From a virus (Duplodnaviria > Caudoviricetes): DNA of 60,040 nt. The notes under the pieces were generated by a model. It had not been told where the DNA came from and ran no database searches. It was given only the letters and a program-made list of their open reading frames with translations. The stretch lies in IMG/VR virus record IMGVR_UViG_3300025154_000101, positions 1 to 60,040 of that record, one strand, 5' to 3'. Shown in pieces: positions 5,472 to 49,600 of this stretch (its first letter is position 1; each line of letters opens with the position of its first letter). Position numbers and translations under genes: made by a program.

Positions 5472-6236
5472 ATGAATCTATATCAAAAGCTTATCGAAAC
5501 CAGGAAAGAAGTCCCGTACTTGCAAAAAGAAAATCAAGGCGAACAGTACAAATATGTTTCCAGTAGTCAGGTATTAGGCAATATTAAGGCCAAGCTTGAT
5601 GAATTAGGCATACTGCTGATTCCATCTGTTAAAAGCCATTTAGTGACAACTTCATCAATAGAATTTTTCAATGAAAAAAACAACGTCACAAAGCGCACAA
5701 ACACATACTTTACCGAACTCGACATGATTATGACATGGGTAAATGCTGAAAAGCCAGATGAAAAAATAGAGTGTTCATGGTACGGTCAAGGCGTGGACAT
5801 AGCAGGTGAAAAGGGAGTAGGCAAAGCCCTTACATATGCAGAAAAATACTTCATGTTGAAATTCTTCAACATTCCAACCGACAAAGATGATCCTGATGCT
5901 TTTCAGAAGCGCATGGACGATGAAGACCCACCGAAACAACCTCAAAAGCCACAGAATGCCCCACAACAGACTAAACCTGTCGGCAATGACAATCATGCAC
6001 CGGAACACTCACAAGCAGCCAAAAACGATCCTAGCGACCTTGAAAAGCGTGCGTCAAAAATATACTTTACCATGACAGGCAATAAAGAAGGGCAGAACGG
6101 TTGGCCTTTGGAACAATACAAGCAATGGCTGAAGGACTTCAAAGAAGCTGGCGCAATATCAACAGACTATGGTAAGAAATGGACAGAAAAAGATATAGCG
6201 TTCCTTGAGCTACAGCTTGTCGAGCTACCTTTCTGA
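5472..6236 (+). CDS. ERF-family single-strand annealing protein
   Basis: GKALTYAEKYFMLKFFNIPTDKDDPD ERF signature. Confidence 0.9.
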   Translation: MNLYQKLIETRKEVPYLQKENQGEQYKYVSSSQVLGNIKAKLDELGILLIPSVKSHLVTTSSIEFFNEKNNVTKRTNTYFTELDMIMTWVNAEKPDEKIECSWYGQGVDIAGEKGVGKALTYAEKYFMLKFFNIPTDKDDPDAFQKRMDDEDPPKQPQKPQNAPQQTKPVGNDNHAPEHSQAAKNDPSDLEKRASKIYFTMTGNKEGQNGWPLEQYKQWLKDFKEAGAISTDYGKKWTEKDIAFLELQLVELPF

Positions 6237-18673: not shown

Positions 18674-18690
18674 GGGATCAACTCCTTTTT

Positions 18691-18760: not shown

Positions 18761-18906
18761 TTATTTCAAACCTGCCATTATGGATCTGTTTACCGCAATG
18801 ATCCGCATGAATTTAATTTTAAGCTCGTAGTCCTTGCGGTACTGCTCATTGGTAGCCATTTTTACAAGGTGGATAAGTTTAGGCATATGAGGAAACCTCC
18901 ATTCTT

Positions 18907-19182: not shown

Positions 19183-19197
19183 ATAAACCCCTCACTT

Positions 19198-19449: not shown

Positions 19450-19521
19450 ATAAATACCTCCATAAATTTATTTGTTCTGGCTTAAAACCATTATCCGGCC
19501 TGCAATTGTGGGGGATTGTTT

Positions 19522-19794: not shown

Positions 19795-20022
19795 ATTTTT
19801 GTTTTTGCAGGCTCGATAATGGTCTTAAGATTCAAGCTTCTCCGTCCCGCTCCGCCTATACTGTGCTATGCACTTCGGCGTATATCCTGCTATCAGGTTC
19901 ATCGGGAGAAACTTTTAAGTTGTCAATGTGCTGCGTTCGATAGCTTTATGATACACCCACATTACACCCAATACAACCGCAAAATAAAACCGCTACGGTT
20001 AAATAGCGGCAATTTGGATTAA

Positions 20023-20271
20023 TTATTTCGGGTTTAACTCGCTCAATCTCAAAATATCTCCGTTTTTTAAGTTTTTTCGGAATTCTGCAATTTCTTCTTT
20101 CCGGCTCCGATACTCTGCATTTATCAGGTTTGTAACGGTTTGAGATAACGTTAATGAATCTAAATCAGCCAAGTCGACAAGTTTATTTTTTATTGCTGGC
20201 GGAAATCGAAAAGTTGTTTTCGGCGTTTCCTTTGGTATTTGTAAGTATTCGTTTTTGTTTGTTCGTTTCAT
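20023..20271 (-). CDS. Ribbon-helix-helix-type regulator
   Basis: TTFRFPPAIKNKLVDLA..DSLTLSQTVTNLI; RBS GGAGGG; promoter TTGACC-17-TACAAT. Confidence 0.6.
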   Translation of the reverse strand: MKRTNKNEYLQIPKETPKTTFRFPPAIKNKLVDLADLDSLTLSQTVTNLINAEYRSRKEEIAEFRKNLKNGDILRLSELNPK

Positions 20272-20392
20272 AAGCGCCCTCCTTTGTAATACATTGTACA
20301 CCCAACAGCATATATGGTCAAGAGGGAAACAGCAGAGCGGGAAAACAAGGTAAAATTATAGTAGGATACAAATAATGTAGGAGAGTGATAAC

Positions 20393-20926
20393 ATGGCAAG
20401 ACCGCCTAAATATACAGATGCAGATATTGATGAGGTACAAAGATTGATAGATCAATATTTTATTGATTGTGACGGCAAGCCGATTATGGTAAAAGACCCT
20501 GACACCGGTGAGGATATACCCTATTTAGATAAGTATGGACAGCCTGTAATGATTGGCGTAAGACCAGCAACGGTAACGGGATTATGTATCGCGCTGGGAT
20601 TTACTACCAGGCAAGCGCTAATTAATTATGAGGATGAGGGTAGAGATAATCCGTTGTTAGTAGACGCTATTACACGCGCAAAGCTTAGATGTCACCAGTA
20701 TGCGGAGGCTAGGCTCTATGACAAGGATGGCGCAAATGGTGCAAAATTCAGCCTTGCAAATAATTTTGGTTGGGTTGATCGCTCTGAAGTAATACAACAC
20801 AATGACATATTACTGGAATCATCAGAGGAAAGACGGAATCGGATTCTTGACTACCTGCAACGCCCGATCATTGAAGGTGTGAAAGCGGAATACCAGGTAT
20901 TGCCCGAGCCAGATCAAGATGAATAA
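20393..20926 (+). CDS. terS: Terminase small subunit (P22 gp3-like DNA-packaging protein)
   Basis: MARPPKY...PATVTGLCIALGF...GAKFSLANNFGWVDR. Confidence 0.85.
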   Translation: MARPPKYTDADIDEVQRLIDQYFIDCDGKPIMVKDPDTGEDIPYLDKYGQPVMIGVRPATVTGLCIALGFTTRQALINYEDEGRDNPLLVDAITRAKLRCHQYAEARLYDKDGANGAKFSLANNFGWVDRSEVIQHNDILLESSEERRNRILDYLQRPIIEGVKAEYQVLPEPDQDE

Positions 20927-20947
20927 AAAAGGGGCTTTTTAGCCCCT
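20926..20947. terminator. Terminator hairpin between convergent genes
   Basis: AAAAA-GGGGCT-TTTT-AGCCCC. Confidence 0.6.
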
Positions 20948-21237
20948 CATATTTCTATATTGTGTATTTGCTCACCCTTATCATTAGTTATTCCCTTGCC
21001 GGATATCTTTATATTAAATTTTCTCTCCAAACCCTTTATGTCCAAACCGAGCAGTTTATAGTATAGTGTTAAAAGTCTGCTAGATATTTCATATTCCGTC
21101 ATGCCTTTATTGTCTGCGTATTTTATCCCCACGCTGTTAGCAAATCCTACAGATATGCGAATATTTGTTAAGTTGTATTCGATGCCGAGCGTGAATTTTT
21201 CTCCCCTGTAGTCCCATGTTTTGTTTCTTATGCTCAT
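20947..21237 (-). CDS. Hypothetical protein
   Basis: RBS GGAGGA; co-directional with the recombinase. Confidence 0.6.
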   Translation of the reverse strand: MSIRNKTWDYRGEKFTLGIEYNLTNIRISVGFANSVGIKYADNKGMTEYEISSRLLTLYYKLLGLDIKGLERKFNIKISGKGITNDKGEQIHNIEI

Positions 21238-21248
21238 TTTAAATCCTC

Positions 21249-21794
21249 CTATAAATTCAAATTAATATAGATGTTTTTGATATCGTCCTGGGTAATACCG
21301 ATGTACCGCAAAGTTATGGATGGCGCGCTGTGATTAAACGCCTGCTGCAATAATGTAATGTCAATACCCTGTTTGTAAGCCCAATAACCGAAAGTCTTTC
21401 TTAATGTATGGGTTCCAATGTTGATATCAAGCCTTGCTTTTTTTGCGGCATCATTAAGTATTGTCCATGCTTGAACTCTTGATATAGGTTGATTGACCCC
21501 CTTCCGGCTGTAGAATATAAAATCATTGTCTTTCAGTTTTCCATTGCCCAAATAGGTTTTTACCGCTTTGCAGGTTGTGTCATTAAGTGTTATGATTCTT
21601 TGCTTGCCTGTCTTAGATTCTTTCAACTTAATAGATTGTCCTGCAACATCTTTCACTCTTAAACCCAACAGATCAGATATTCTAAGCCCTGTATTAATGC
21701 CCAGTGTAAATAAAAGCAAGTCTCTCTCATTTGTAAAGCTCTTTTTCATTTTCTCAATCTGTCTCTTATCCTTGATTGCTCCGACCTCATTCAT
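21249..21794 (-). CDS. Small catalytic-domain-only tyrosine recombinase
   Basis: TGLRISD (R), K, HTLRKTF (HxxR), NHS, TLRYIG (Y). Confidence 0.92.
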   Translation of the reverse strand: MNEVGAIKDKRQIEKMKKSFTNERDLLLFTLGINTGLRISDLLGLRVKDVAGQSIKLKESKTGKQRIITLNDTTCKAVKTYLGNGKLKDNDFIFYSRKGVNQPISRVQAWTILNDAAKKARLDINIGTHTLRKTFGYWAYKQGIDITLLQQAFNHSAPSITLRYIGITQDDIKNIYINLNL

Positions 21795-21931
21795 TTCCTC
21801 GCCTCCTTTCAATATAACTTAACCTTATCTTATTGTATGCTATTGTGTTAGATTCGTAAAGCCTTGAAACAAATGATTGCACTTGATAATAGCCGTTAAT
21901 GCCTTGATAATGCGGCATTATCTTCTGTTTT

Positions 21932-33966: not shown

Positions 33967-35528
33967 ATGCCAGGATTTTTCTACGCATATAGCTTGGACG
34001 GCTCAAAAGAATTAAATAAGCCGTTTTACATTCCTACGGCAACAGTAATTGAACAAGGCGAAATGGTGCTGTTCACACCCGGTACGGGGATTGCAGTGGT
34101 GGCGGGTAAATAATGTGCCCCTGTATACAGAAATGTATATAGCAAACCATTTTAATTGCAAGAAACCTAAATCTATTCATCAGTAGACATGGCAACTTGC
34201 AGCCAAGGTTAATTAACGAGCGTCATACTTTGAAGGAGATGCGACATGGAGAATTGGAAAGATGTTAAGGGTTTTAAAGGGTTATATCAAGTGAGCGATT
34301 TAGGAAGGGTTAGAAGCTTAGATCGGGTGGTCAGCCAGAGAGATATGCTTAGTAATTGTGTGGACAGAACGTATTACGGTCAAATTCTCAAATTGAATAA
34401 AAAGCGTAATGGCTATTTGCAAGTATGTTTGAGAGATAGACAAATTTCAAAACACATAGGCGTTCACAGGCTAGTGGCAGAAGCGTTTATAGAAAACCCA
34501 CACAACAAACCTTTGACAAACCACAAGAACGGCATAAAGACGGACAACCGCATGAGTAATTTAGAATGGTGTACATGCAAAGAAAACTCTGAGCATGCAC
34601 GCAGAACCGGGTTACACAATCCCAAAATAACACCGCAATGTAAACAGGCATCCGTGATTCTCCAAAGCAAAGCTGTTAAATGTAATGAAAACGAAATGAT
34701 CTTTTCATCTTCATATGAAGCAGCTTTATGGATAAACAATAGCTTGTTTTCCAATACAAAGAAAAACCATTGCATTGCGGCAAAAGTGAGAAATGTCTGT
34801 GCCGGCGAAAGAAATAAATGCTACGGGTATTCTTTCCAACACGTTAGTTAACAAGGTTCAACGACTATCCCTTATGGGAGTAGGGTTTAAGTAAGCCCGA
34901 AATGGATGGCGTCTTTCACAGACGATGACATAGTCTAACCTTACGGGAAACCGTAAGCAGTTTATAAAACGGAGCAAGAATAACGAACTTGCTTGAATAT
35001 CAAATGACAGATTTCGACGACCCCGCAATGGGACCCGCTATCAACGCACATGCGGCCAGCAGCGGAACAGAGCTAAAGGTTTCAGCAGCCCCGGCTTCCG
35101 TGTTCAGACACGTATCTAGCAACATTATAACCGCAACAGGTGGTTCAACAACTACGTTTGTTGTTGCGGGACTTCTGCCACAGACAGATGACCTTTGGAT
35201 AGACGGTTATCTGGAAGTAGTAACCTGCGCAGCCGACAGTTCGTTAATTGGCAAGAGAATCAAGATCACTGATTCCACCGGCAACACCGGAACAATCACA
35301 TTTGCAGCACAGACAGCAGCGTTTGCTTCGGGCGACACTGCAAAACTGTGTCCGGGACCGAGAGCAATCGGCGAGTACGGTTGGGACTTGGACGGGGACG
35401 GAATGAACGTGGACTGGGATACCTCCGGTGGAGAAGCATTGGAATTGGTCGATACCGATGCCGTCAACATGGCTTCCTTCTGGAAACTTAGATTACACCA
35501 GTTCGGAAATGGCCCGGCAGCCCTGTAA
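33967..35528 (+). CDS. Intron-split head protein: exon 1 33967-34107, exon 2 35007-35528, 220 aa spliced
   Basis: RBS AAAGGAG; 47 codons MPGFFYAY...VVAG join in frame to TDFDDPAMG...; between scaffold and capsid. Confidence 0.8.
34108..35006 (+). ncRNA. Group I intron (IA-like)
   Basis: 5' exon ends in U pairing with IGS GCCC; P AATTGCAAGAAA (34154), Q ACTTGCAGC (about 34195), R GTTCAACGACTA (34856), S GACATAGTCT (about 34927); terminal G 35006; P10 UGU/ACA. Confidence 0.88.
34246..34851 (+). CDS. Intron-encoded NUMOD4-HNH homing endonuclease
   Basis: ENWKDVKGFKGLYQVSDLGRVRS; VHRLVAEAFI; NHKNGIKTDNRMSNLEW. Confidence 0.92.
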   Translation: MENWKDVKGFKGLYQVSDLGRVRSLDRVVSQRDMLSNCVDRTYYGQILKLNKKRNGYLQVCLRDRQISKHIGVHRLVAEAFIENPHNKPLTNHKNGIKTDNRMSNLEWCTCKENSEHARRTGLHNPKITPQCKQASVILQSKAVKCNENEMIFSSSYEAALWINNSLFSNTKKNHCIAAKVRNVCAGERNKCYGYSFQHVS

Positions 35529-36536: not shown

Positions 36537-38042
36537 ATGGCAAGAGCTAGGCATTTTGGCGCAGGCTACTCCTACTTTGGAGAGGACTACTCGGCTGGCC
36601 CAACCGGCGCAAAAGGTATGGATGTAAAGGCGTTCGGCGACAGTTCCGGCAAATATGTCTTTTGGGACGCTTCAGCGGACACATTGTATGTAGTAGGTTC
36701 GTTAAGCCTTGACGGTACATTTGCAGCCGACAACATAGCCTTTGCTGACGCTGAAACTTTAACGTTTGGCACGGGTTCGGATGTTGTTATGCAATGGGAT
36801 GGTACAAACTTTATAATTGCAGCTGCAGCGGACGACAGTTTGATTGAAATAGGTGATTCAGCGGCTACCCAAAAGTCATTTGATGTGAAGTGGTACGCCA
36901 ACGAAGCAAATGGAGCAAGCTATCTGTATTTTGATGCTGGCTCAAATTTGATATACACCACCGGTGTTGACCTTCAATTTAAAGACAATGATTACCTTGT
37001 TTTCGGTACCGGCTCAGGGGCTTCTGGCGACATAAATATGGTGTGGAACGGTTCAAGTTTTCTGATAGCAGGAGTTGCTGCATCATCAACAACAATATTC
37101 GGCGGTTCAGCAAACATAATTGACCTTAACCATTACGGTGATCTGTCTGGTTTCAACAACGAAGCGGACGCCACGGGCTACACGATTACCGCCAGAAAAT
37201 CCAGAGGACCAGCAGACACAGCACTAAACGATAATGACGTTGTGTTCCAGATTACAGGCGAAGGATTAAATGACAACGCTACACCTGCAGCTAAAACACT
37301 GGCGAACATAAAAATACTAATGACAGATGCTTCCGACACCACGGAGGACGGAGCAATAGTATTTGAGGTAATGGTGGCTGGTGCAGCTGCAGCCGAAAAA
37401 CTCCGTATAGCTGACATTATAACAGCAAGTGCAGTATTGCAACTTGGTTCTACTGCGACAGCAGCCTTGACAATGGGAGGCGGAATATCAGGGACGCCTT
37501 TAACCACTGCAACAGCCGATAAGAACTTCCTTGGTTTTTGGACTGAATCCACTGCGACGTCGGGCGACAGCAGGGGATTGTACCTGCGTCATTATCTTGG
37601 TGGAACAATAGCCGCTACCGGATATGGCGATGCAATAAGGGCATTTTGTACCGTTACTGGGACAGGGTATTCATACGCTTCAGGTTTGCATGGTACAATG
37701 CAGATTAATGCGGATGCTACAGTAACAGGCTCTGGTTCTGGTATAAGGGCAACATTGGCAGCCGCTGCAGACACAAGGACACTTGATGGTGCTTTATCAG
37801 CCCTTCATTTGTGTTCAGACATTGCAACCGGAAACACTGTGCCGACAGTGCATGGATTCCTTAGATGTACAGATGATGGGGCGGTAAGGTTCGGAAACTT
37901 TGCGGTTATTCCGAATGTTGAAAATGGTACTATTTTCGCAGCACATACCACGCAAGGACTTACCCATTCAATTAAAATCATCAGTGAAGATGGAACGGCT
38001 TATTACATTATGTGTACTGATGCCGCTACCAACAGATCGTAA
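36537..38042 (+). CDS. Virion structural protein (head fibre/decoration)
   Basis: G/A/T/S-rich, beta-rich sequence with repeated FGTG..D..M.W.G motif. Confidence 0.6.
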   Translation: MARARHFGAGYSYFGEDYSAGPTGAKGMDVKAFGDSSGKYVFWDASADTLYVVGSLSLDGTFAADNIAFADAETLTFGTGSDVVMQWDGTNFIIAAAADDSLIEIGDSAATQKSFDVKWYANEANGASYLYFDAGSNLIYTTGVDLQFKDNDYLVFGTGSGASGDINMVWNGSSFLIAGVAASSTTIFGGSANIIDLNHYGDLSGFNNEADATGYTITARKSRGPADTALNDNDVVFQITGEGLNDNATPAAKTLANIKILMTDASDTTEDGAIVFEVMVAGAAAAEKLRIADIITASAVLQLGSTATAALTMGGGISGTPLTTATADKNFLGFWTESTATSGDSRGLYLRHYLGGTIAATGYGDAIRAFCTVTGTGYSYASGLHGTMQINADATVTGSGSGIRATLAAAADTRTLDGALSALHLCSDIATGNTVPTVHGFLRCTDDGAVRFGNFAVIPNVENGTIFAAHTTQGLTHSIKIISEDGTAYYIMCTDAATNRS

Positions 38043-38211
38043 GGAGGATTAGCATGAGTAAGAATTGCCCCGTATGTGATAAGAGCCTTGAAACCAAAGC
38101 TGTTAAATGCGATTGTGGTTATACGTATGAAGCAGAAAAGGCAAAGCCAAAAAAGAAGGTATAATGATAGTAGGGGGTTTCCCCTACTATTTTAATTTAC
38201 GGAGGGTTATT

Positions 38212-38586
38212 ATGATAAAAATTAAACTTGGAGAATTGAAATCGTTAGTATCCGGAGTAAACGAGATTATGGGAGAAAAACTGCCCATAAAAGCAGCTTA
38301 TGCGTTTACAAAATTTGCAAAAAAGCTTCAAAAGGAAGTACAGACATATGAGGAAAATAGGAGGAAACTTATTGACACATATGGTCTGAGGGATGAAAAC
38401 GGAAAACTCGTTATCAATAATGGCATATACGAAATAGCAGACAAGGAAAATTTTAATAAGGAATTTGTTGAATTGAGCGACATAGAAACAGAAATAGACT
38501 TTGACCCTATTTCGTTAGGCGCTTTGGGCGATATTTCTTTATCTCCATTATCAATAATGGCATTGGAAAAGGTAATCAGGGAATAG
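38212..38586 (+). CDS. Phage protein (DUF1617-like)
   Basis: KLPIKAAY...RRKLIDTYG..DENG; RBS GGAGGG. Confidence 0.55.
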   Translation: MIKIKLGELKSLVSGVNEIMGEKLPIKAAYAFTKFAKKLQKEVQTYEENRRKLIDTYGLRDENGKLVINNGIYEIADKENFNKEFVELSDIETEIDFDPISLGALGDISLSPLSIMALEKVIRE

Positions 38587-38593
38587 GTGGATT

Positions 38594-38929
38594 ATGGAAT
38601 ACAAAGGTTATAACATAAGCGACATAGAAACTCTTTTGCTCCATGACATATTGCAGGAGCTGAAAGAACTCAGGTTGGAAGTAACGGAGTTAAAAAGAAA
38701 TTTTAACATTCCGACTGATAATACGAGAGACGTAGTTATAGTTCCGCCTTATGGAGAAACATTACTACTTACCCAAAAACCCCAAGAGACAGAGCGAGAA
38801 GATGTAAAACCTGTTGAAGTATTGCCCAAGGGAAAGCCACAGGAAGCACAAGAGATACCCAAAAAGCCAGTAACAAAAAAGCCTGCTAAGAAGCGTAAAA
38901 CGGCAAAGAAAGGCAAGGTGACAAAATGA
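38594..38929 (+). CDS. Hypothetical protein with basic tail
   Basis: ORF in the late operon. Confidence 0.55.
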   Translation: MEYKGYNISDIETLLLHDILQELKELRLEVTELKRNFNIPTDNTRDVVIVPPYGETLLLTQKPQETEREDVKPVEVLPKGKPQEAQEIPKKPVTKKPAKKRKTAKKGKVTK

Positions 38930-39291
38930 ACGGAATAGTTGACATTGAATATATAAATAAAGGTTCGCCAATAGCGGCAATTAGTGCGGCAGAGGCAACG
39001 ACCACATCCATCCCCATAGATGCAAGGGGGAAAAATGCGGCATTGCTTAAGATCGCTCTATCCGGTGCAGCAAACTGGACAATAAAACTGACTGGTTGTT
39101 TTACTAGAAACGGAACCTATGTAGACTTGTACGAATTAGCCAACACAGGCGTAATGACCCAAATGTCACATCAGACAAATACTAGTAGGATGATTTTATT
39201 CAAGGGGATTCCGGACTGGATTAAAGTTGTCGCCACTGAGGATGTAGACGGTCAGACCTGTTCTGTCGACGTTCAATTGCTCAATATGTAA
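38926..39291 (+). CDS. Structural beta-sandwich protein
   Basis: Late-operon position, beta-rich. Confidence 0.55.
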   Translation: MNGIVDIEYINKGSPIAAISAAEATTTSIPIDARGKNAALLKIALSGAANWTIKLTGCFTRNGTYVDLYELANTGVMTQMSHQTNTSRMILFKGIPDWIKVVATEDVDGQTCSVDVQLLNM

Positions 39292-39311
39292 AAAAAAGGG
39301 GGGCGATATTA

Positions 39312-39653
39312 ATGAAAAACGATGTTAAGGACCACATATTTCATAATGCTTCAAATTCAGCAAATAATGGAATATTTTTAGAAGTCGAATATTTCAAGAC
39401 GTTAACTGTTGAAATATATGGTTCAATTGACAATTCTGCCAGAACGGTTCTTTTTTACGCAATGGGGCCAAGCAAGATTCTTAGGGATTTTGTGGGCGTA
39501 AAATTAAGCGCAGCCCCTTTGGCTACAGCAGTAAGCACTACAGGTATATCAGAAATTTGGCAATTTGATATAACTGGTCTGACAAGAATTTACATGGTAT
39601 TGTCCTCGATTACCGATGGGACAGTTACTATAAAAGGAAGGGCGGTATCGTAA
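39312..39653 (+). CDS. Structural beta-sandwich protein (fibre adaptor-like)
   Basis: Directly upstream of the tailspike. Confidence 0.55.
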   Translation: MKNDVKDHIFHNASNSANNGIFLEVEYFKTLTVEIYGSIDNSARTVLFYAMGPSKILRDFVGVKLSAAPLATAVSTTGISEIWQFDITGLTRIYMVLSSITDGTVTIKGRAVS

Positions 39654-41357
39654 ATGGCTACATTTGCACAACTTTTATCACAATACAGTCAATCTGCAGT
39701 AAGCTTTGCGAAGCACTTATCTGAAAATGCTGCTTATGTTGCAGACACCGGTACGGCTGACGCTTTAGTTGTTACGCTTTCAACAGCGCCAGCGGTTTAT
39801 AGTACAAGCATGTTGCTGATAGTTAAGAAGTCGGCCAGTGCCAACACTGGGGCGTCAACGATTAATGTCAGTGCGTTGGGCATAAAATCTATTGTAAAAG
39901 ATGTAGATACAACATTAGAATCTGGCGACATGCCCGCTAATGGTTTGTGTTTTTTGCAATATGACGGCACAAATTTCTTGCTTTTGAACCCTGCCAAATC
40001 TGCCGCTCTTAGTACACATATGGCTGATTATATGACATTGTTAATAAATGCAAAGTATCCTCCAACTCCGCTTGTTGGTGCGTCTGCTTCTGTTGGGGTT
40101 GATGATACCGCAGTTTTACAAGCAATAATTGATTATGCTGCTGCAAACAATAAACAGGTATTTGTCCCGCCTGGAACGTATGAATTTACAACCCTGGTTA
40201 TACCACAAGATTTTAAACTATTTGGTATAGCGGGGGAATATAAAGGCACTGTATTTAATCATACTGGCACAGGGGTTGGGTTTGATTTGAGCGGATCTTT
40301 CAAAAAAACGGTGCTTGAAGGATTTACAATTATTGGCGGTGGGGCTGCATCTGTTGGTATTAACATTATGCGTCCCGAAACACAGATTCGCAATGTAGAA
40401 TTTAGAAGCTATTTAGGAACGGCTTTTTTGCTTGATGATGACCCTTTATCAACAAGTGGAGCATGGATGTCAACACTTGAACATGTTAAAATCAATGGTG
40501 CAACAGTCGGAATAGATTGTGTAAATAACGTAAATGAAGTTACAATAAAAGATTTTCAAATTCACAATTGCACAACAGCCGGAATACGCTCATCAGGAAG
40601 TAACAGCAGTTTGCATATTATAGATGGAAATTTGTCTGAAAATGATAATGGGACTAATACATCTCATGCAATAGATATTTCTGGGGGCGTTGATATATCT
40701 ATTAAAAACTGCTACATTGAAAATAATGATCAGGGAATCTATGTTTCCAGTGTGGACAATCTCACTATTCAAGACTGCTTTATAAACGGAGTAAATGTTC
40801 AGGGTAATGGTATCTATTTGACAAGTGCAAATGTAAAACAGGTAAATATATTAAACTGTCACTTAATACAGCATTTCACTGCGGACATTAACCTAAATAC
40901 AAGCCCTGCAAATGTATTTATAATTAATTGCCACTATACCACATTGACAAATAGCTCAAATTCTACAGTTTTGGAGGTAACAGGATCTACAATTGTCGGT
41001 CGTGGGCTTGGTGTTATCACTAACGGATTAGTGCGGAAATCACAAAACAAAACAGCAGACTATACCGTTACATATGAGGACTCTGAAACAACTATGACAA
41101 ATATCGGTGCAGGAGCAAATGTGGCGTTTACTCTTCCGGCAACTAGACCCGGTGTTAAATTTACATTTATAAAAAGGCAACTATATCAGGCGATTACGCT
41201 TGTTCCTGTAGCTGGTGATAAATTTGTGTATAGAGGTTCTGTAAAAACTGACGGACAAACGTTTGTGGCGAGTGAATCCGGACATTATGCTTCTATAACA
41301 ATCGAAGGTATTGACGAGGGTTGGTATGTCCATGTAAATGACGGCACGTGGGCTTAG
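39654..41357 (+). CDS. Tailspike / receptor-binding protein with pectate-lyase-like beta-helix
   Basis: GVDDTAVLQAIID...VFVPPGTY beta-helix cap followed by Asn/Ile-rich parallel beta-helix repeats. Confidence 0.85.
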   Translation: MATFAQLLSQYSQSAVSFAKHLSENAAYVADTGTADALVVTLSTAPAVYSTSMLLIVKKSASANTGASTINVSALGIKSIVKDVDTTLESGDMPANGLCFLQYDGTNFLLLNPAKSAALSTHMADYMTLLINAKYPPTPLVGASASVGVDDTAVLQAIIDYAAANNKQVFVPPGTYEFTTLVIPQDFKLFGIAGEYKGTVFNHTGTGVGFDLSGSFKKTVLEGFTIIGGGAASVGINIMRPETQIRNVEFRSYLGTAFLLDDDPLSTSGAWMSTLEHVKINGATVGIDCVNNVNEVTIKDFQIHNCTTAGIRSSGSNSSLHIIDGNLSENDNGTNTSHAIDISGGVDISIKNCYIENNDQGIYVSSVDNLTIQDCFINGVNVQGNGIYLTSANVKQVNILNCHLIQHFTADINLNTSPANVFIINCHYTTLTNSSNSTVLEVTGSTIVGRGLGVITNGLVRKSQNKTADYTVTYEDSETTMTNIGAGANVAFTLPATRPGVKFTFIKRQLYQAITLVPVAGDKFVYRGSVKTDGQTFVASESGHYASITIEGIDEGWYVHVNDGTWA

Positions 41358-41396
41358 TTCACATAAGGAATAAATAGTTCATAATAAACGGCTATT

Positions 41397-41421
41397 AGCC
41401 CTTCCGAAAGGTGGGGCTTTT
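41397..41421 (+). terminator. Intrinsic terminator
   Basis: AGCCCTTCC-GAAA-GGTGGGGCT-TTT. Confidence 0.6.
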
Positions 41422-41466
41422 ATCATGTTAAAATATAGATATAGAGATAATTCAAGGAGGTAAGTT

Positions 41467-42096
41467 ATGTTAGTCTCGGAATTAATTACTTTTATCGATA
41501 GGAAATACAGCAATTCGGAATCTTCGGCAAATAAGATCCTCGACATTGATGCAATTCATAAGCGGACTTTTATGAAGTTAAGCCGGTTGTCAAACAACTA
41601 TACCAAACATACTGATGTTACCATAGCAGATCAGTTAGTATGCAATTTTCCTGCCGACTGTTCACCTGAAAATGTTATATCAATCCAGGTATCTGATTTG
41701 GCGGGAGAGGAATGGACCGAATACAAATATGCAGGACTGAAGGATTACATTTCAAGCGGATATTATTGGACTACGGACACGGCTGGCACGTACGCCCTAC
41801 TTGATTACGGCGAGGTTATTGCAACCAATGACTTGGGTATTATCATTTATTATTACAAGACTCCTGCGACAATAAGCCTTACTACTGACACACCAGAACT
41901 AGATCCGCTTTACCATCTTATAATTGCTTACCAGGAAATTTCAGACATTGCAAGCCAGGGACATAATCCGGATGCGGAAATAGCCGACTTCTGGCAAAGA
42001 AAAGCCGATGAACTGTTTGCTGAAGCCAAGGACGATTTGTACGAGAAGAATAATTCGAAGCCGAAAAGGTCATGTCAGGCTACGGAGGATTGGTAG
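41467..42096 (+). CDS. Head-tail adaptor (tubular protein A-like)
   Basis: Size, position, DTPELDPLYHLII motif. Confidence 0.65.
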   Translation: MLVSELITFIDRKYSNSESSANKILDIDAIHKRTFMKLSRLSNNYTKHTDVTIADQLVCNFPADCSPENVISIQVSDLAGEEWTEYKYAGLKDYISSGYYWTTDTAGTYALLDYGEVIATNDLGIIIYYYKTPATISLTTDTPELDPLYHLIIAYQEISDIASQGHNPDAEIADFWQRKADELFAEAKDDLYEKNNSKPKRSCQATEDW

Positions 42097-42097
42097 G

Positions 42098-43468
42098 ATG
42101 GGTGTGTATTGGAATAAAAGAAAGTTAAGTCATTCTCAAGAGCCTTCGCCGATTAGGTTAGGTGATGGTGAAAACAAGGCTGTTTCTATCTTTGAAATAA
42201 AGCAAAGCGAGGCTTCTTACAGCAGGAACACATCAAGTCGTAATTATCCTGCCTTGTCCGTATGTCCCGGGAGAGCCAATGTATTTTCCGCAATCACAAC
42301 TCCAAATGCTGCCGGGAAAAGAACTAATACATATATGCATGTCCATGATGGTACAGTTTGGAAAGCTTGGAATGGTTCAGCATGGGCGAATATTCAAACA
42401 GGCTTGACCAGCGCAAGAGGCAGATTTGTCGATTTCTCAACAGAGGCGGCAACTTATACCATCCTGGCGAACGGTACAGAAAAATACTCATGGAATGGTT
42501 CCGCAGCTGCAGCAATAGCGGATATGCCGGCAACAAGGTTGATTTGTGTTGACGATTACCGGGTATATGCGCTACTTGGGAACAAACTGTCCTGCTCTGC
42601 CGCTGGTTCGGTCACAGATTGGACTACAGCAGACGATGCCGACAGTATCATGATTGCTTCGGCCAATGGTGTAGGAACGGCTGTGGCGGCTTACAGTGAC
42701 ATTGTAATATGTTGGTTTGATCAAAGTATGCACCAACTATTCGGGGATGATCCGTATAATTTCCAATGGGGCCCAGTCTATGACGATGGCTGCATATCGG
42801 ATTATTCCGTCATTGAGCATAGAGGTATACTCTATTTCCTCGATTTTGGTGCATTCAAGGCATTTACAGGAGGCAAGCCGCAGGAAATAAGCCAAAGAGT
42901 CAGACCGTATCTGGAGGGCATACCAGCGGCGTACAAGACTAAGTGTGTTGCGGGGGCTTCGGGCAAATATATTTATCTTTCCATCCCATATGGAGCGGTC
43001 ACGGAAAATAATTTAATTCTGGAATATGATACTGAACTTGACAGATGGTATCCGCAAACCGGTGATGTTGTCGATTTCGTCACGATTGGTGAGACTTTGT
43101 ATGGAATTTCTTCAACTGGCCAGCCGATACAGTTTGGTTCCGGTACTACTTTTAGCGGTACGGCGATTTCGTGGAGTCACATAACTGGAGTCTACCACGG
43201 TGGAACGTATACAAAGAAATGTCTGAATGAATTGGATATGATAGTTGACCTGCCTATAGGTTCGACAATGACTGTATCTTATTCAACTACGGTTGATGGT
43301 GACGATTTTGTTTTGGCTTATACTTTTGCAGCTTCAGCAGTTGAACAGAATGTAAGGGTTCCTCTTGTGGTGGAAAATGTTGATTATTACCGTTTGGAAT
43401 TCAGTGGAACCGGTCCGTCTACGATTCATTTTGCCTATAAAGGCAGAGAAAGGATTAAGGTGAGATAG
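42098..43468 (+). CDS. Tail nozzle / stabilisation protein (P22 gp10-like)
   Basis: Beta-propeller-like repeats, position after the adaptor; likely start ATG 42098. Confidence 0.65.
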   Translation: MGVYWNKRKLSHSQEPSPIRLGDGENKAVSIFEIKQSEASYSRNTSSRNYPALSVCPGRANVFSAITTPNAAGKRTNTYMHVHDGTVWKAWNGSAWANIQTGLTSARGRFVDFSTEAATYTILANGTEKYSWNGSAAAAIADMPATRLICVDDYRVYALLGNKLSCSAAGSVTDWTTADDADSIMIASANGVGTAVAAYSDIVICWFDQSMHQLFGDDPYNFQWGPVYDDGCISDYSVIEHRGILYFLDFGAFKAFTGGKPQEISQRVRPYLEGIPAAYKTKCVAGASGKYIYLSIPYGAVTENNLILEYDTELDRWYPQTGDVVDFVTIGETLYGISSTGQPIQFGSGTTFSGTAISWSHITGVYHGGTYTKKCLNELDMIVDLPIGSTMTVSYSTTVDGDDFVLAYTFAASAVEQNVRVPLVVENVDYYRLEFSGTGPSTIHFAYKGRERIKVR

Positions 43469-44514
43469 TGCAACCAAGATTTACATATGACAGTAATTTA
43501 ACCCCACAACAGAATATGGAGGCTTTGATACCAAGACTAAATCATTTGCTGGCCTTCTTGGATTCAAAAAATGTCAAGCGGATTGACACCAACGAAACAG
43601 TAGTGAAGTCAGCTGATGGCGAAACTCGGATAAACGGCCCGCTCATTCAAATGTACGACAAACAGGGAACGCCGATATTAAGGCTACAGGCAGGTTATGA
43701 TGCTGCTACTCTTGATTTTGTATTTCAGTTATTAAACTCCGCTGGCGACATCACTGTTAGCATGGATTCATCTACTGGTAACATAATAGTTGAACGCGGT
43801 ACATTTAAAGGCAGCATTACAATAGGTACCGGAAACAATGTTTTCAAGGCAGACAGTAACGGTATATATTTAGGCAATGCCTTATTTGCCAGCGCACCAT
43901 TTAGAGTGACAATGACTGGTGCTGCCACAGCCTCAAATTTGACCATTGAGGGCGGAACAATAACAGGTGTAACTATTTCTATTGGCACGGGGAATAACGT
44001 GTTTAAGGTTGATAGCAATGGTGTCTGGTTGGGACATGCGGACTATGCAAGCGCTCCGTTTAAAGTAAGTATGGCGGGAGCGGCAGAAGCAACGAATTTG
44101 ACGGTTACAGGCGGCAGCATTAACGTTGATACAGATTTATATGTCGGGAATAATATCTACTTAGGAAGCCTTAATTTGACCGCACTAAAAAATATGGTAT
44201 TTAATGGTCAAGTTGAAATTGGGATTTATGAAGATGATTTAGGGAGCCCGCCTGTAGGGTTTTACATTTCCGCGAACACTCTTAAATTAAGTGATGTTTC
44301 AAAAATTGTTCATGATGCGACTTTGGAATTTTACGGCACTTATGGCTTTTCAGGTGCAACAGTGTCGGGATTGGACAGTTCCGATTACGCTACTCAGACA
44401 TGGGTTAATGCGCAAGGATTTTTAACTGGGACAACTGGCGCAACTGGCTCTTTTACTTCTGCTGATGGGAAAACAATATCGGTTTCCAACGGCTTAATAA
44501 CAAGCATCGTATAA
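43468..44514 (+). CDS. Tail needle/fibre-like protein with internal duplication
   Basis: IGTGNNVFK.DSNG..LG.A..ASAPF.V.M.GAA.A.NLT..GG present twice. Confidence 0.6.
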   Translation: MQPRFTYDSNLTPQQNMEALIPRLNHLLAFLDSKNVKRIDTNETVVKSADGETRINGPLIQMYDKQGTPILRLQAGYDAATLDFVFQLLNSAGDITVSMDSSTGNIIVERGTFKGSITIGTGNNVFKADSNGIYLGNALFASAPFRVTMTGAATASNLTIEGGTITGVTISIGTGNNVFKVDSNGVWLGHADYASAPFKVSMAGAAEATNLTVTGGSINVDTDLYVGNNIYLGSLNLTALKNMVFNGQVEIGIYEDDLGSPPVGFYISANTLKLSDVSKIVHDATLEFYGTYGFSGATVSGLDSSDYATQTWVNAQGFLTGTTGATGSFTSADGKTISVSNGLITSIV

Positions 44515-44581
44515 TTATTTTGAAAAATATGTATTATTTTTTGAATGTTATGGTATAATTTACCCAAGAGGTGAATACAAT

Positions 44582-44890
44582 ATGAAAAAAATTTTACTAG
44601 GTTTAATTATTGGTTTAATGATCGGTTCCAGTGTTTCAGTTTTTGCACTGGACAAGTTCGACATTATGAGACTTGACACATATGATAACTGGCAAGCTGT
44701 TTTGGTAGGTAGTCAAAGTACGGGCCCGATATTAGACATAGGCACCCTTGAGAAAGACGAAACAGATGCCCATAAAATTAGCGACTTGGAACGAGTAACC
44801 ATTCATGCTGATGAACTAAGGTTGAAAGGCGAAAGAGTTTTAACGGAATCACAAGTAAGAGATTTGATCCTGGAACTGACAAAAGAATAA
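44582..44890 (+). CDS. Secreted protein (moron) with its own promoter and terminator
   Basis: Signal peptide; TGGTATAAT extended -10 upstream; AAGAATCC-GAAA-GGGTTCTT terminator downstream. Confidence 0.65.
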   Translation: MKKILLGLIIGLMIGSSVSVFALDKFDIMRLDTYDNWQAVLVGSQSTGPILDIGTLEKDETDAHKISDLERVTIHADELRLKGERVLTESQVRDLILELTKE

Positions 44891-46645: not shown

Positions 46646-49600
46646 ATGGCAGGAATATTATGGGGAAGTAGTTCAGATTCAAAACCTTCCACTGCAGGCA
46701 AAGGTATTTTGTGGAACAAACCTGATATTGAAAAAGATTCCTCCAATGACAGCAATGAGCTTCGCAAGGAAACTTTGCCGGCAAAAAGGCAGCAAGCAAT
46801 AGACACTGCAAAAAGCGCAAAGCCTGTTGTTCAGCAGGAAACAAAAAGACCTTGGGTGGAATCTGCCTTCAATAGAATAAGTGAGGTTGCCAGCGAGATA
46901 CCTCTTGTTAAAACAATTCGTTCTGCCGCTAAAGACACACAGAAAGCAAGGGAAATGCCTGTTGCGGAAATAGCACAAACCGATTCATCCAGAAGGCAAG
47001 AGCTATTCGGTCAACCGGCGGCATATCTTGCAAGCAATGTTGACAAGGGCTTATTAAACTTTAATCAAGGTTTATCGAATGCTGCCGCTGTAGCCGTTGA
47101 AAATACGCCTTTAAAATTTATTCCTGGCGTAGTGGATTACGTCAAAGAACCACAGAATCGATTTGAGGAATATTCTCAGGAAATAGACAAAGCAAACCAG
47201 CCTGTCAGCAAGGGACAGAAATTCCTTGGTGATGTTGTATCCGCTGGGGCGCAAATGGCTCCATCTATTTTACTGGCTTCAATCAATCCCGCTGTCGGCA
47301 TGGCTGCGTTCGGCGTTCCGGCTTTTGGCCAATATGCAAGGCAGGCAGAACTTGGAGAGGCGACACCTTCACAGCAATTAGGCGTAGGTGTAATTGGTGG
47401 AACGGCAGAAGCATTCCTGCAGACCTCGTTATTTGTTAAACCTTTGTTGAAACTATTCCCCCAAAAAGTAATATCCGACGTTGCTAAATCCGGCACGGCT
47501 AATCTTATAAAAAACTTTGCAAACATAGGCAAAAACGTTGTAAAAACTGCCGCAGGCGAAGCTTTTGAAGAAGCAGCGATTGACCCTGTAATCGGACTTG
47601 CTGAAAAAGCCACTTACAATCCAGATAAGAAATGGCTTGGCGAAGGTGGAGCAATCGACCCTAAACAAATGGGTTACGATGCTTTACTTGGTGCCGTTAT
47701 GGGTGGCGGTATTGCTTCAACATCAATTCCGTTCAGCGTAGCAGATGCGATTGAAGTCAAGAAATATATCGAGCAGAATTATGATGACACTCTTGTCATG
47801 GCACAAGGACTTCCCGAGAATTACGCTTCACGCAAGAAGTCAATCGAATATGCTGAAAATGCCCATCCGATAAGTTACAATGAGCTTATTGAATTTCAGC
47901 AGCAGACCGTAAAAGATTTACAGGATTATGCGGCAAAGAATCCAGTCAAGGAAGCCGCACAGCCTAAAATAGAACCTGAGAATATCCAAACACCTCCAGT
48001 TGGAAACAAGCCTGCAAAAGCTGTACAGAAGGTTGAAGCGTTGAAGAAAATCCGTATGTCGGTCAAGCAAGGTACACCGGAATATGAGGCAATTGACGAA
48101 ACTATTAAAAGCGTTGAAGCCCAATTACAGGACGAAATTACCACAGCTAATCCGCAGCAGTCAGAACAGATCGCAGAGGAATTGAGACAGATAACAGGTG
48201 ACAAAACACAGCCTATTCCTGCCAATGTTGTACCTGAGAATGTCGAAATACCTGCTACTGGCAAAATGGATTCTACGGGTTTACAGGGTACAACAATGAC
48301 CGAAAGAAACACAGCAAATGCAGCCGGTACAAATAATTTAATAACTAATCCAAAAACCAAAGCATACCAATTTGAAAATCCGGAAGTGAAAGACTACTAC
48401 CAGACTTATGCCAAATATATCCTTGATGATGAATTCGTACCAAACGCACAAGAGGGCAGAGTAACCGAAGTCATGGCAAAGTTAAAGTCTGACACTGGAT
48501 TGCAGCCAGGCGAGGTTAAAGATGCACTGGAACGGCTTATAAAGAATCAAGGTCAGGAGAATGTCGCAGCCGCCAAAAAGGTTGAAATTGTCATAGACGA
48601 CATGCTGTCCAATGGCTTTGAATCTGTCAGGGGCGAGAAGGTAAAGCCGATAGACGATTATTTGCAGATTAAGTCAGATATTGAGGGTAGAGAGATTAAA
48701 GCTGGCAAAGATGCTACATTGGATGATGTTCCGGCAGAGACAAGTTATGCGAAGCCGACTAAGAACAAAAAAGCTCCCGATGTTCAAGGCTATGCCGTTC
48801 AAGAACTCACGGGCAGAACTGATGAATTGCCAAAGGGTGACGATTCAAGCACAGAATCCAAGACGGTTGACGATATTATTGAAATCATTGAAAAGACCAT
48901 AGGCGTTCCGATCAGAACAGGCAAGTTCAGGCAAAAAGCATTGGGCATATTTAAAATCAAGCCTGAAGTTATCCGCACAAAAGTAAGGGGTGACATACCA
49001 GTTATATCCCATGAATTAGGGCATTACTTTGACAAGAAATACAACTTGTCTACAAGCAAACAATTTAAGAGTGAACTTGATGCGTTGGGTAAAAAGACTT
49101 CCAAACCAAGCTATACACTCGCCCAAATAAGAGCGGAGGGCGTGGCTGAATTTGTCAGTCTTTACTTGACTAACCCAAATAAGGCGCATTCACTTGCTCC
49201 GAAATTCCTTGCGCAATTTGAAAAAACAGTTAATGCAGATACGGTAAAATTCCTTGCTGAGATAAGAAAGGATATTTCAAACATTATAAATCTGCCGCAG
49301 AATAAGAAAATTTACAATGATGTGTCGGACTTTGAAACAAGGAAATCAACTACCCAACAGGTAGGATTTATTCAGAAATTATATGACTCCTGGATAAACG
49401 ATAAAGGGCCGTTCAAGAGGATGCAGAAGTACGCAGAAGGCAAAGGATGGACAGGAAAGGACATTGACCTGCTTACTCAAAACTATAGCGGATTTGAAGC
49501 CAAGGCGCTTTACATGATGTTTGACAAGCAGAGAGATTTAAAAGGCGACATTATAGGCAATTCATTTATGGAAATATTGGCGCCGATATCCAAAAAGGAA

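Follow-up and report, generated by a model that had tools for sequence, protein, structure and literature searches.

The tailspike gene analysed here is very likely an ordinary modular one, whose enzyme-bearing half forms a cassette exchanged by homologous recombination, and in which two of three candidate recombination sites are the codons of a recurring protein linker motif. The gene belongs to an uncultured, temperate, podovirus-like phage from groundwater; by the window we mean the whole stretch of its DNA that was analysed (60,040 nucleotides). An earlier note had described the gene as an anchor, a fibre domain and a depolymerase, each followed by a related, dif-like 28-nt site, and had proposed that host-range modules could be swapped between these sites in frame. 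The modular plan and the boundaries near the first two sites have held up, as has the exchange of the C-terminal enzyme module at the second one; the dif nature of all three and a site-specific mechanism have found no support, and of the 3' junctions only one adjoins the third site.

A Modular Tailspike Gene

The gene is found in the tail-gene block of the virus record, its surroundings including a P22-like portal, head proteins, lysis genes and an integrase, and its neighbour resembles the SU10 adaptor (26.3 bits, just under the cut-off of 27). The gene and the parts of its product, P0001, are the following:

39654..41357, + strand: tailspike/tail-fibre gene P0001 (567 aa; ORF call)
39690..39728, + strand: predicted helix with the pre-domain linker motif SFAKHLSE (residues 13-25; model with low pLDDT)
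39735..39992, + strand: tail-fibre beta-domain (residues 28-113; from tblastn HSP ends and a model with pLDDT 80-93)
40002..40055, + strand: predicted neck helix with the post-domain linker motif THMADY (residues 117-134; monomer model with pLDDT 44-51)
40068..40982, + strand: right-handed beta-helix, probable polysaccharide depolymerase (residues about 139-443; from PF13229, model and fold matches)
40983..41354, + strand: C-terminal region (residues 444-567; pLDDT < 50; homologues are the C-termini of P0066 and P0157)

Sequence and predicted structure characterize P0001 as a modular beta-helix tailspike, made of an anchor and an exchangeable part that is probably a depolymerase. Residues 286-429 match PF13229 (Beta_helix) with E 1.8e-8 and 34.6 bits (cut-off 25.9), and residues 26-98 match the tail protein phrog_4900. 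In the predicted model, helices within residues 1-25 are followed by the beta-domain (residues 27-110 by the model, 28-113 when the HSP ends are included), a helix at residues 117-134 and a beta-helix extending to about residue 443, with pLDDT 80-96 across about residues 150-440. A search of solved structures with the P0001 sequence gave no match, its single chance result having an E value of 0.25. By fold, P0001 matches the tailspikes of Sf6, HK620, CBA120 (TSP3) and Dettilon, phi29 gp12 and also AlgE4; the matches of the beta-helix to the tailspike group have E values of 1e-4 to 1e-3, at 9-17% identity to any solved chain. Homologues of the beta-helix occur with other N-termini in P0072, P0123, P0138, P0066 and P0157. 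On the strength of family, model and fold, the beta-helix of P0001 is a probable polysaccharide depolymerase.

A Widespread Beta-Domain and Its Linker Motif

The beta-domain that precedes the beta-helix is a mobile protein module, found in tandem copies in many fibres. A relative of it is encoded in 427 viral stretches, and the C-termini joined to it in homologues are diverse. The whole 567-aa P0001 query is matched by 9462 proteins at E<=0.001, and among the 150 of these matches that were listed, nearly all are made through the beta-domain, a single protein having as many as 12 matched stretches. The limits of the module can be read from 92 tblastn HSPs, 29 of which begin at residue 28 and 53 of which finish at residues 110-113. 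Among solved structures it comes closest to the tail fibre of Pseudomonas phage Pa193 (PDB 9b45 chain 2, 9b45_2; E 2e-4, 34% identity over 95 columns), the fold of which is like that of the N-domain of P0001, just as the beta-helix is like those of Sf6, HK620, CBA120 and phi29 gp12.

On either side of this domain, and again behind the gene, lie the three strings at issue, each drawn as two 11-nt arms around a 6-nt central region:

39708..39735, + strand: site 1, codons 19-28 (AKHLSENAA); string present; arm complementarity 7/11
40011..40038, + strand: site 2, codons 120-129 (STHMADYMT); string present; arm complementarity 6/11
41356..41383, + strand: site 3, its first base being the A of the TAG stop (41355-41357); arm complementarity 3/11

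All three strings, at 39708, 40011 and 41356, are exactly as first described, and sites 1 and 2 are indeed in-frame codons, read in one frame with H-[LM]-[SA]-[ED] in common. They are the codons of a single recurring linker motif, (S-F-x-x-)H-[LM]-[SA]-[ED], that stands on both sides of the beta-domain, and it is because both encode this motif that they resemble each other and share a frame. According to the model, the two copies would sit in predicted helices that flank the domain. In all six frames of the window (120,076 codons), H[LM][SA][ED] occurs five times, twice inside the tailspike gene. For the slightly wider pattern H[LMIV][SA][ED] there are 16 hits, in 9 of the 162 family proteins, where composition would give 2.3, and these almost always adjoin a domain boundary. 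SFAKHLSE itself aligns with SFNTHL[AS]DY, found ahead of domain copies in P0019 and P0030. Six further instances of the motif in distant relatives are written in differing codons (CAC/CAT; GCT/GCG/GCC/GCA; GAT/GAC). Note also that at 80 distant viral loci the similarity stops at residues 110-113, short of the linker motif, and that, judged by eye, none of these 80 carries the motif straight after the beta-domain.

The Three Strings as DNA Sites

Considered as DNA sites, the three strings are, on the sequence comparisons that follow, best regarded as chance look-alikes: arm symmetry, likeness among the sites and pattern counts are all at the level of chance. In an 11-6-11 layout, 0.8%, 3.5% and 54% of window positions reach the 7, 6 and 3 of 11 complementary arm bases of sites 1, 2 and 3, so that by our arithmetic some 60 positions in the 1.7-kb gene are expected to do as well as site 2. 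Pairwise identity among the sites amounts to 12, 13 and 8 of 28, values attained by 4.7%, 2.0% and 46% of 28-mer pairs in the gene (67,706 of 1,430,586 non-overlapping pairs reach 12 identical bases, and 29,253 reach 13). The left arms of sites 2 and 3 do match at 9 of 11 bases, as had been claimed, and 451 pairs of 11-mers in the gene match at 9/11 or better. The pattern ACATAW-N6-WTATGT with up to two mismatches was observed 14 times against 14.9 expected from shuffles, and the left arm of site 2, also with up to two mismatches, 15 times against 16.6. The potential of sites 1 and 2 to form single-strand hairpins or cruciforms is weaker than in shuffled sequence (z +0.99 and +0.97).

Conservation of synonymous positions within the motif had been proposed as a check, with free synonymous variation there taken as the mark of a mere protein motif. 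Compared with the closest relative, L082, site 1 shows synonymous change in 4 of its 9 conserved codons (36 of 88 elsewhere), and nucleotide identity is 85% in site 1, 70% in site 2 and 78% in the remainder of codons 1-129. Synonymous change in site 1 is therefore free, and site 2 falls below its flanks in conservation, which identifies the sites as a protein motif.

Site 3, for its part, is intergenic DNA unrelated to the other two, situated between the stop codon and a hairpin that resembles a terminator:

41397..41424, + strand: hairpin with a trailing U run, terminator-like (fold of 41350-41440, -20.5 kcal/mol, z -1.76)

A promoter-like match overlaps site 3 (TTCACA-16-CATAAT at 41358-41385, 10/12). 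The earlier note had also connected site 3 with sites e and g of the early region. The 8-mer in its left arm, TCACATAA, is indeed common to them (7 occurrences observed against 3.0 expected, 3 of 100 shuffles reaching 7); membership of site 3 in this repeat family was rejected, overall identity being 15/27 and that to site e outside the 8-mer only 7/19, whereas e and g are identical at 22/27.

Exchange of the Cassette in Relatives

Site 2 is the junction between the conserved N-terminal module and a variable cassette. Over residues 1-129 L082 has 78% identity, and beyond them it is unrelated (best E 0.11 for the remainder), its nucleotide homology stopping at codons 126-129. In P0003 identity falls off after HMADY (Y126), and P0008 matches P0001 from residue 118, and clearly from about residue 130. 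P0049 breaks at residue 118, two codons ahead of site 2, and has its own THLAED 10 residues further along. The junctions of L082, P0003 and of the second allele described below lie within about five codons of one another, directly after H-x-A-[DE]; these three are the only relatives with informative junctions, and in no relative is the 3' end of the gene spanned by available DNA. The proposal that identity should break at the HLSE and HMAD codons and after the stop was borne out at site 2; at site 1 no homology break is present in L082 or in the second allele. Further searches added no relatives: blastn of 38000-44600 against the phage collection gave no match, scans of viral contigs with P0001, P0003 and the downstream neighbour protein no usable one, and a scan of genome contigs with a protein alignment 51 pattern matches with no relative among them.

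A Second Allele in the Same Community

Contigs of a groundwater metagenome indicate that two tailspike alleles coexist in one community. The evidence consists of assembled contigs, not reads, from two samples of one study, which is possibly the source of the window itself. The segment replaced in the co-occurring allele is:

40028..41353, + strand: variable cassette (end of the neck, beta-helix and C-terminal domain; delimited by loose ends of contigs)

In both samples the second allele diverges after 40027, that is, after codon 124 plus two nucleotides, and its continuation past the junction is open in the frame of the gene. The variant contig aligns over 69 nt (39959-40027), starting at a graph node (39959) that it has in common with the contig of the window allele. 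Upstream contig depths of 16.6 and 18.1 are close to the sums of the two branches, 10.3+4.1 and 11.3+4.8 (window allele plus variant). Rejoining in frame at 41354, at the TAG stop, is seen in one contig of one sample, and the 5' and 3' junctions are unlinked; when the 30 letters that precede 41354 are read by hand in all three forward frames, stops are absent only from the frame that leads into the shared TAG.

From 38900 to 39988 both alleles are collapsed into a single unbranched contig, of total length 3,363 nt. In the last 39 shared bases the second allele then shows two synonymous differences (39989 and 39995), 33-39 nt before the divergence. They follow at least 1,089 nt of identity, and if differences were evenly spread, such a placement would by our arithmetic have a probability of (39/1128)^2, or about 0.001. 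On the evidence of these two differences, the exchanged tract begins upstream of site 2.

The point of divergence falls right after the last base of the central region of site 2 (40022-40027). The 11 bases that come next in the second allele, AAGTGCGTACT (a consensus of loose ends), are by hand count complementary to the left arm of site 2 at 8 of 11 positions, a level reached by 0.13% of window positions, and the equivalent of site 2 in L082 has an arm complementarity of 7/11. Part of the symmetry of site 2 can be traced to its codons for His (CAT) and Tyr-Val/Met (TAT-RTG), and that of the second allele cannot. Comparison of the right arm of site 2 between window and second allele gives 3 identical bases out of 11, again counted by hand.

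Other contig junctions lie at 39570, 41397, 41439, 41441 and 41511, all away from the sites, the one at 41397 coinciding with the first base of the terminator-like hairpin. The contig layout shows no joints, a result that, with rare variants being lost from contigs, carries no information on deletion between the sites. For site 3 as an exchange boundary, the junction at 41354 does adjoin it, but the four other 3' ends lie 14-128 nt beyond.

Recombination Genes and a Test for Inversion

Three genes of the phage were considered for a possible part in moving the cassette:

5472..6236, + strand: Erf-like single-strand annealing protein (PF04404 ERF, E 2e-22; phrog_155, E 2.7e-34)
21249-21812, - strand: Xer-like tyrosine recombinase, 187 aa (XerA/XerD catalytic domains, E 3e-30 and 6e-23)
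17040-17615, - strand: small serine DNA invertase, 191 aa (PF00239, E 1.3e-31; phrog_125, Gin/Hin family, E 8.5e-47)

The tyrosine recombinase scores 106 and 82 bits against curated XerA/XerD cut-offs of 220 and 330. The recombinase genes are located about 18-22 kb from the tailspike gene (the invertase 22 kb off), beside a repeat-rich region of their own, and the phage also has a separate integrase. Inversion of the fibre C-terminus of the Gin/Cin type was considered in view of the invertase and rejected: all six frames of the record contain one P0001-like match only, with no second cassette, and among 233 pairs of repeats no inverted partner for the gene was found above chance, those touching the gene being 70-72% complementary with partners 14-34 kb away. 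Downstream, every gene listed as far as 54616 reads in the + direction.

How the Cassette May Be Exchanged

The account that we consider very probable is exchange by homologous recombination of a cassette within an ordinary modular tailspike, the sites being linker codons. In this account 40028-41353, comprising the beta-helix and the C-terminal domain, would be a host-range cassette, variable among close relatives as well as among strains found together. The N-terminal module would provide the left homology arm, and the stop codon, the intergenic region and the adaptor gene the right one; recombination in this conserved DNA would swap the enzyme half of the protein, and the Erf protein of the phage may assist in it. 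The reading frame would be preserved because the left arm is itself coding and its end coincides with a domain boundary. The donor-type differences upstream of the junction, the scattered positions of the junctions and the presence of an Erf gene fit homologous rather than Xer-type exchange.

That the strings are dif/Xer-type or phage-recombinase sites, where strand exchange in the central regions would swap fibre and depolymerase domains in frame, is very improbable, even though several observations are of the kind that such sites would produce. The second allele departs at the last base of the central region of site 2, and the contig that rejoins does so 2 nt ahead of site 3. In L082 and P0003 homology runs out inside site 2 or at its margin, the unrelated right flank of the second allele is still 8/11 complementary (background 0.13%), and the phage encodes both a DNA invertase and the 187-aa XerA/XerD-like recombinase, the latter far below the cut-offs. 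However, exchange partners that match at 3/11 in the right arm have no right arm, and hence no site, in common, and donor-type synonymous differences occur 33-39 nt upstream of the junction. Arm symmetry of 7, 6 and 3 of 11, inter-site identity of 8-13/28 and pattern counts equal to shuffle expectation, together with freely varying synonymous positions and a site 2 less conserved than its flanks, also speak against it, as do the unbroken homology at site 1 in L082 and the second allele and the four 3'-side contig ends 14-128 nt past site 3. The recombinase genes are moreover about 18-22 kb distant, and a separate integrase is present for lysogeny. A looser version, in which the linker DNA (codons 120-129) keeps a dyad across three alleles (6, 7 and 8 of 11) and would act as a recognition or cruciform-prone site that starts in-frame exchange through the phage recombinase, the invertase or a structure-specific nuclease, strikes us as similarly far-fetched.

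Rather more plausible, though still unlikely, is that the linker is purely structural, a trimer neck of no help to recombination, and that new spike chimeras come from rare illegitimate joins at any position. Only chimeras joined at the domain boundary would fold, so that selection by itself would set the junctions at site 2 and the stop codon, existing cassettes then spreading by homologous recombination in the flanks. The position of the motif in predicted helices at domain borders and the conservation of its DNA, no better than that of its surroundings, agree with this, as do the 80 distant loci that end at residues 110-113 with the motif directly after the domain in none, and P0049, which breaks at residue 118 with THLAED 10 residues later. 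On the other hand, three independent junctions fall within about five codons, directly after H-x-A-[DE], and in many fibres the motif stands ahead of domain copies too; this recurrence would make an in-frame patch of about 12-20 nt available as micro-homology. As to how the junction first arose, the data are equally compatible with such illegitimate joins and with the favoured account. One might finally suspect that the second allele is an artefact of the assembly graph, a short stretch shared with an unrelated organism, and that no exchange between strains took place, since the evidence is contigs only, the aligned part of the variant measures 69 nt and its two junctions are unlinked. We find this scarcely credible, given the common graph node at 39959, an upstream depth close to the sum of the branches, a variant present in both samples with a continuation open in the frame of the gene, letters before 41354 that are stop-free only in the phase of the TAG, and the same junction shown independently by L082 and P0003.

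Known Systems and Significance

The closest parallel to cassette exchange by homologous recombination is the proposal that conserved sequences flanking the receptor-binding domains of tailspikes are hotspots of homologous recombination (Virol J 2023, PMC10408124). As described there, a conserved N-terminal anchor is combined with an exchangeable beta-helix domain, and conserved sequence lies directly upstream and downstream; one of the downstream motifs is a predicted terminator, and in the present gene a terminator-like hairpin has a junction at its first base. The two cases, compared by description, differ in phage group and habitat, and here the 5' junction is the in-frame linker of a repeated fibre domain. 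The motif DNA in those phages is described as more conserved than its surroundings, whereas here it is not (70% in site 2 and 85% in site 1 against 78%), and the conserved arm is the whole N-terminal module, not the linker motif alone. Exchanges in the fibre genes of T-even phages are likewise reported to occur within or near conserved motifs (Tetart 1998 via PMC3157838; also PMC10408124, PMC12529663), short in-frame protein motifs bracketing variable segments of chimeric adhesins. Differently from these accounts, the motif here is H-[LM]-[SA]-[ED], located in a predicted helix and in another fibre architecture.

Site-specific systems offer more limited parallels. With dif/Xer sites and the elements that exploit Xer, as characterized in PMC5357621, the gene has in common that an 11-6-11 layout can be drawn and that the phage carries a small Xer-like recombinase gene; unlike them, its dyad is not above chance, is not conserved among copies or relatives and has no shared right arm. 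The Vibrio filamentous phages that use XerC/XerD are described as mostly doing so without an integrase (PMC4246890), whereas the present phage is tailed and has its own. In Mu (Gin, G segment) and P1 (Cin, C segment), invertible tail-fibre segments (PMC12529663) change the C-terminal host-range part in frame by site-specific recombination, and a homologue of the Gin/Hin family is encoded here too; the present gene, by contrast, has a single cassette with no inverted partner above chance, and the invertase gene is 22 kb away.

Had the dif-like reading been right, it would have meant a dedicated site-specific system for host-range swapping; this does not hold. The dyad in the linker DNA would, if it were a true site, likewise represent a dedicated host-range swapping device in tailed phages. 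The linker motif is of practical use as a landmark for annotating module boundaries in unannotated tail-fibre genes, and it helps to pick junctions for the comparison of receptor-binding modules. What remains is a natural example of a known principle, a conserved attachment module with interchangeable depolymerase cassettes, of which two alleles coexist.

The tailspike gene and its repeated fibre domain

The linear virus record (60,040 bases, estimated to be 74% complete) encodes a P22-like portal, head proteins, an SU10-adaptor-like protein, lysis genes and a 1,789-aa LPD38 protein, together with an integrase, a repressor, an Erf-like annealing protein, a replication module and two methylases. 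The LPD38-domain protein (large polyvalent protein family; 46646-52015), upstream of which lies a PG_binding_1 protein, probably belongs to the virion as an ejected or internal component. An HNH/NUMOD4 homing-endonuclease-like gene (34246-34851) lies among the head genes, with a portal-proximal gene on one side and the major head protein gene on the other. The gene considered here is the following:

39654..41357, + strand: tailspike ORF P0001, 567 aa

P0001 contains a right-handed beta-helix (PF13229 over residues 286-429, E 1.8e-8), and its predicted structure matches the tailspikes of Sf6, HK620, CBA120 and Dettilon as well as phi29 gp12, polysaccharide epimerases/lyases also being among the fold matches. 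Sequence and model thus predict a tailspike-type receptor-binding protein. Homologues match P0001 almost solely over residues ~28-113, and their C-terminal domains are many and different. Among viral contigs, 427 stretches encode a relative; in the 80 of these that were kept, 29/92 HSPs begin at residue 28 and 53/92 end at 110-113. An exhaustive protein search gave 9,462 hits at E<=0.001, in which the domain stands in as many as 12 tandem copies. In the model this fibre domain is a confident beta-sandwich (pLDDT 80-93), whose sole solved match at E<=0.001 is the Pseudomonas phage Pa193 tail fibre (9b45 chain 2; 34% identity).

The earlier note had proposed that three 28-nt dif-like strings (11-nt arm, 6-nt core, 11-nt arm) at 39708, 40011 and 41356, here sites 1, 2 and 3, allow in-frame exchange of receptor domains by site-specific recombination. 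The strings are present exactly as it gave them, sites 1 and 2 are read in one frame (codons 19-28 and 120-129), and the domain boundaries that it placed near them are real. The modelled fibre domain is bordered by helices 13-25 and 117-134, inside which the two sites lie. The linkers of P0001 read SFAKHLSE ahead of the domain and STHMADY behind it; in the multi-repeat fibres P0019 and P0030, SFNTHL[AS]DY[VI]RQPGY stands ahead of every domain copy, and the same motif precedes the domain in five viral loci. Among 162 family proteins, 9 carry it, with 16 occurrences in all where 2.3 are expected. H-[LM]-[SA]-[ED] is a genuine protein motif, and sites 1 and 2 resemble each other and share a frame because each is one copy of the linker between modules of a repeated fibre domain.

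DNA-level properties of the three sites

None of the DNA resemblances among the three sites exceeds chance. Arm complementarity is 7/11, 6/11 and 3/11 in sites 1, 2 and 3, levels reached by 0.8%, 3.5% and 54% of window positions, respectively; the inner-arm palindrome pattern has 14 matches (14.9 expected), and folding of sites 1 and 2 gave no unusual hairpin at either. The reported 9/11 left-arm match between sites 2 and 3 is correct; 451 11-mer pairs within the tailspike gene are at this level, and the left arm of site 2 has 15 matches with at most two mismatches (16.6 expected). Pairwise identities among the sites (12/28, 13/28 and 8/28) are equalled by tens of thousands of 28-mer pairs inside the gene. 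The start of site 3 falls within the TAG stop codon of the gene; a promoter-like match (10/12) overlaps the site, and a terminator-like hairpin with a U run lies 3' of it (41397-41418). Early-region sites e and g do form a related pair (22/27 identical). Of their proposed kinship with site 3, the common 8-mer TCACATAA stands (7 occurrences, 3.0 expected), but elsewhere only 7/19 positions agree.

As the reference for DNA-level constraint served the closest relative, L082, a 2,547-nt metagenome contig 78% identical to P0001 over residues 1-129 (the N-module). At site 1 all 9 amino acids are kept with 4 synonymous third-position differences, the rate found elsewhere (4/9 vs 36/88 conserved codons), and site 2 has 70% DNA identity, vs 78% for the rest; the His, Ala and Asp codons differ among six further motif instances. 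Synonymous positions thus vary freely at site 1, and DNA identity at site 2 is below that of the surroundings; free synonymous variation is the outcome that the earlier note itself had named as speaking against its reading.

Two recombinase genes are found in the window:

17040-17615, - strand: Gin/Hin-family DNA invertase, 191 aa (phrog_125, E 8.5e-47)
21249-21812, - strand: Xer-like tyrosine recombinase, 187 aa (XerA/XerD-like catalytic domain)

The latter has a length like that of Fim-type invertases. The two genes bracket a block of minus-strand ORFs (17040-21812) between the early and terminase genes, in which the GC skew is reversed (-0.154 at 18-20 kb), and which might represent either an inserted element or a module for phase variation. 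Between them, a 25-nt inverted repeat (19481-19505 / 19805-19829, 88% complementary) encloses 299 nt holding a complete 90-aa minus-strand ORF (19522-19794) with a ribosome-binding site; this unit (19481-19829) is a candidate for an invertible switch or for a small inserted element. When the record was searched for P0001 matches and inverted repeats, neither an inverted second cassette nor a partner site for the tailspike gene turned up. The 3' end of the invertase gene has sites e (15458) and g (16994) next to it. Both belong to a family of 27-31 nt direct repeats (...ATAAAAATAATGCGAAGGAG-like; 7658, 14672, 15239, 15457, 16657, 16994) that are apparently intergenic, judging from the copies compared with ORFs, often end in a ribosome-binding site and are probably a regulatory or gene-start cassette.

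Exchange junctions in relatives and in a groundwater population

Three relatives are informative for the 5' junction, and the DNA of all relatives stops short of the 3' end of the gene. Nucleotide homology with L082 begins at the ATG, crosses site 1 unbroken and stops at codons 126-129, in the interior or at the edge of site 2. Beyond, L082 is different, weakly beta-helix-like and apparently frameshifted, its remainder not resembling P0001 130-567 significantly (best E 0.11). Its beta-helix part is divided between frames 949-1407 and 1343-2545, which overlap; this points to a frameshift or deletion or else to faulty assembly. Within L082 (1-2547) the N-module homologue lies directly 3' of a bacterial-type SLH-domain trypsin-like peptidase gene, not of phage tail genes. 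Similarity of the homologous protein P0003 is high from residue 22 to Y126 and much lower past HMADY, and P0049 (71% identity over 21-118) has its own THLAED ten residues on. P0008 matches from 118, clearly from INAKYPP (~130), and further proteins match only in the beta-helix and C-terminus, starting at 142-184.

A second allele is found in metagenome contigs (four runs, two samples, one groundwater study that is possibly the source of the window and probably not independent of it). An unbranched contig spans 38900-39988 (part of 3,363 nt) at depths of 16.6 and 18.1 in the two samples, and the assembly splits in two at 39959, one branch being the window allele (39959-41391 or 39959-41537; depths 10.3 and 11.3) and the other the second allele (4.1 and 4.8). 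The latter follows the window to 40027 save for 39989 C>T (N112) and 39995 C>A (A114), both synonymous by hand reading, and continues with at least 255 unlike letters, open in frame (H-M-A-E-S-A-Y-Y..., by hand). At 41354 the window is joined, in one sample, by a contig whose unlike part is at least 255 letters long; when its last 30 letters are read in all three forward frames, the one phased with the shared TAG is alone in lacking a stop codon (hand reading). Around the gene (39570 and 41397-41895), other contig ends or junctions fall at 39570, 41397, 41439, 41441 and 41511, and the adaptor-like gene is covered by several variant contigs with 20-31 differences per ~185-205 nt. Several related strains thus coexist, the whole tailspike neighbourhood being mosaic.

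Together, the relatives and the contigs indicate that a cassette of ~40028-41353 is swapped between co-occurring strains, with its 5' edge at site 2 and one 3' edge at the stop codon; site 1 is no junction, and the 3' flank is mosaic at several further places. The proposed swapping of receptor modules, with breakpoints at the motif codons and behind the stop, is therefore supported at site 2 and the stop codon but not at site 1.

Homologous versus site-specific exchange

If the exchange at site 2 were site-specific, the left flank should be that of the backbone, unchanged, and both partners would have to possess like sites. Some features stay odd. The second allele diverges exactly after the 6-nt core of site 2, and the 11 unrelated bases that follow can pair with the left arm at 8/11 (hand count), a level reached by 0.13% of window positions; the equivalent figure for L082 is 7/11. 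Three to four of the complementary pairs stem from motif codons (CAT opposite TAT-RTG), the symmetry in the second allele coming instead from AGTAC opposite GTACT, and its 8/11 may be chance. The presence of the invertase and Xer-like recombinase genes is a further oddity. Against site-specific exchange, two donor-type synonymous differences lie upstream of the junction, both within the final 39 bases that the alleles share and behind a stretch of at least 1,089 nt of identity (chance of such clustering ~0.001 under an even spread, by our arithmetic), and to the right of the junction the two alleles agree at 3/11 (hand count). The dif-like, site-specific mechanism is not supported, and we consider a dedicated recombination role of the linker DNA very improbable.

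The junction pattern is that which homologous recombination inside the conserved N-module would leave. The sharp 5' edge would then be the place where homology between two module families ends, and recombination within the N-module would swap the cassette, perhaps aided by the Erf annealing protein that the phage itself encodes. PMC10408124 describes tailspikes with conserved N-terminal anchors and exchangeable receptor-binding domains, and proposes as hotspots of homologous recombination the conserved motifs on their flanks, which include a terminator; PMC3157838 (citing Tetart 1998) places T-even fibre-gene exchanges within or near conserved motifs. The exchange suggested here would follow the same logic as that described for both systems, and P0001 is a further example of the well-known modular kind of tailspike.
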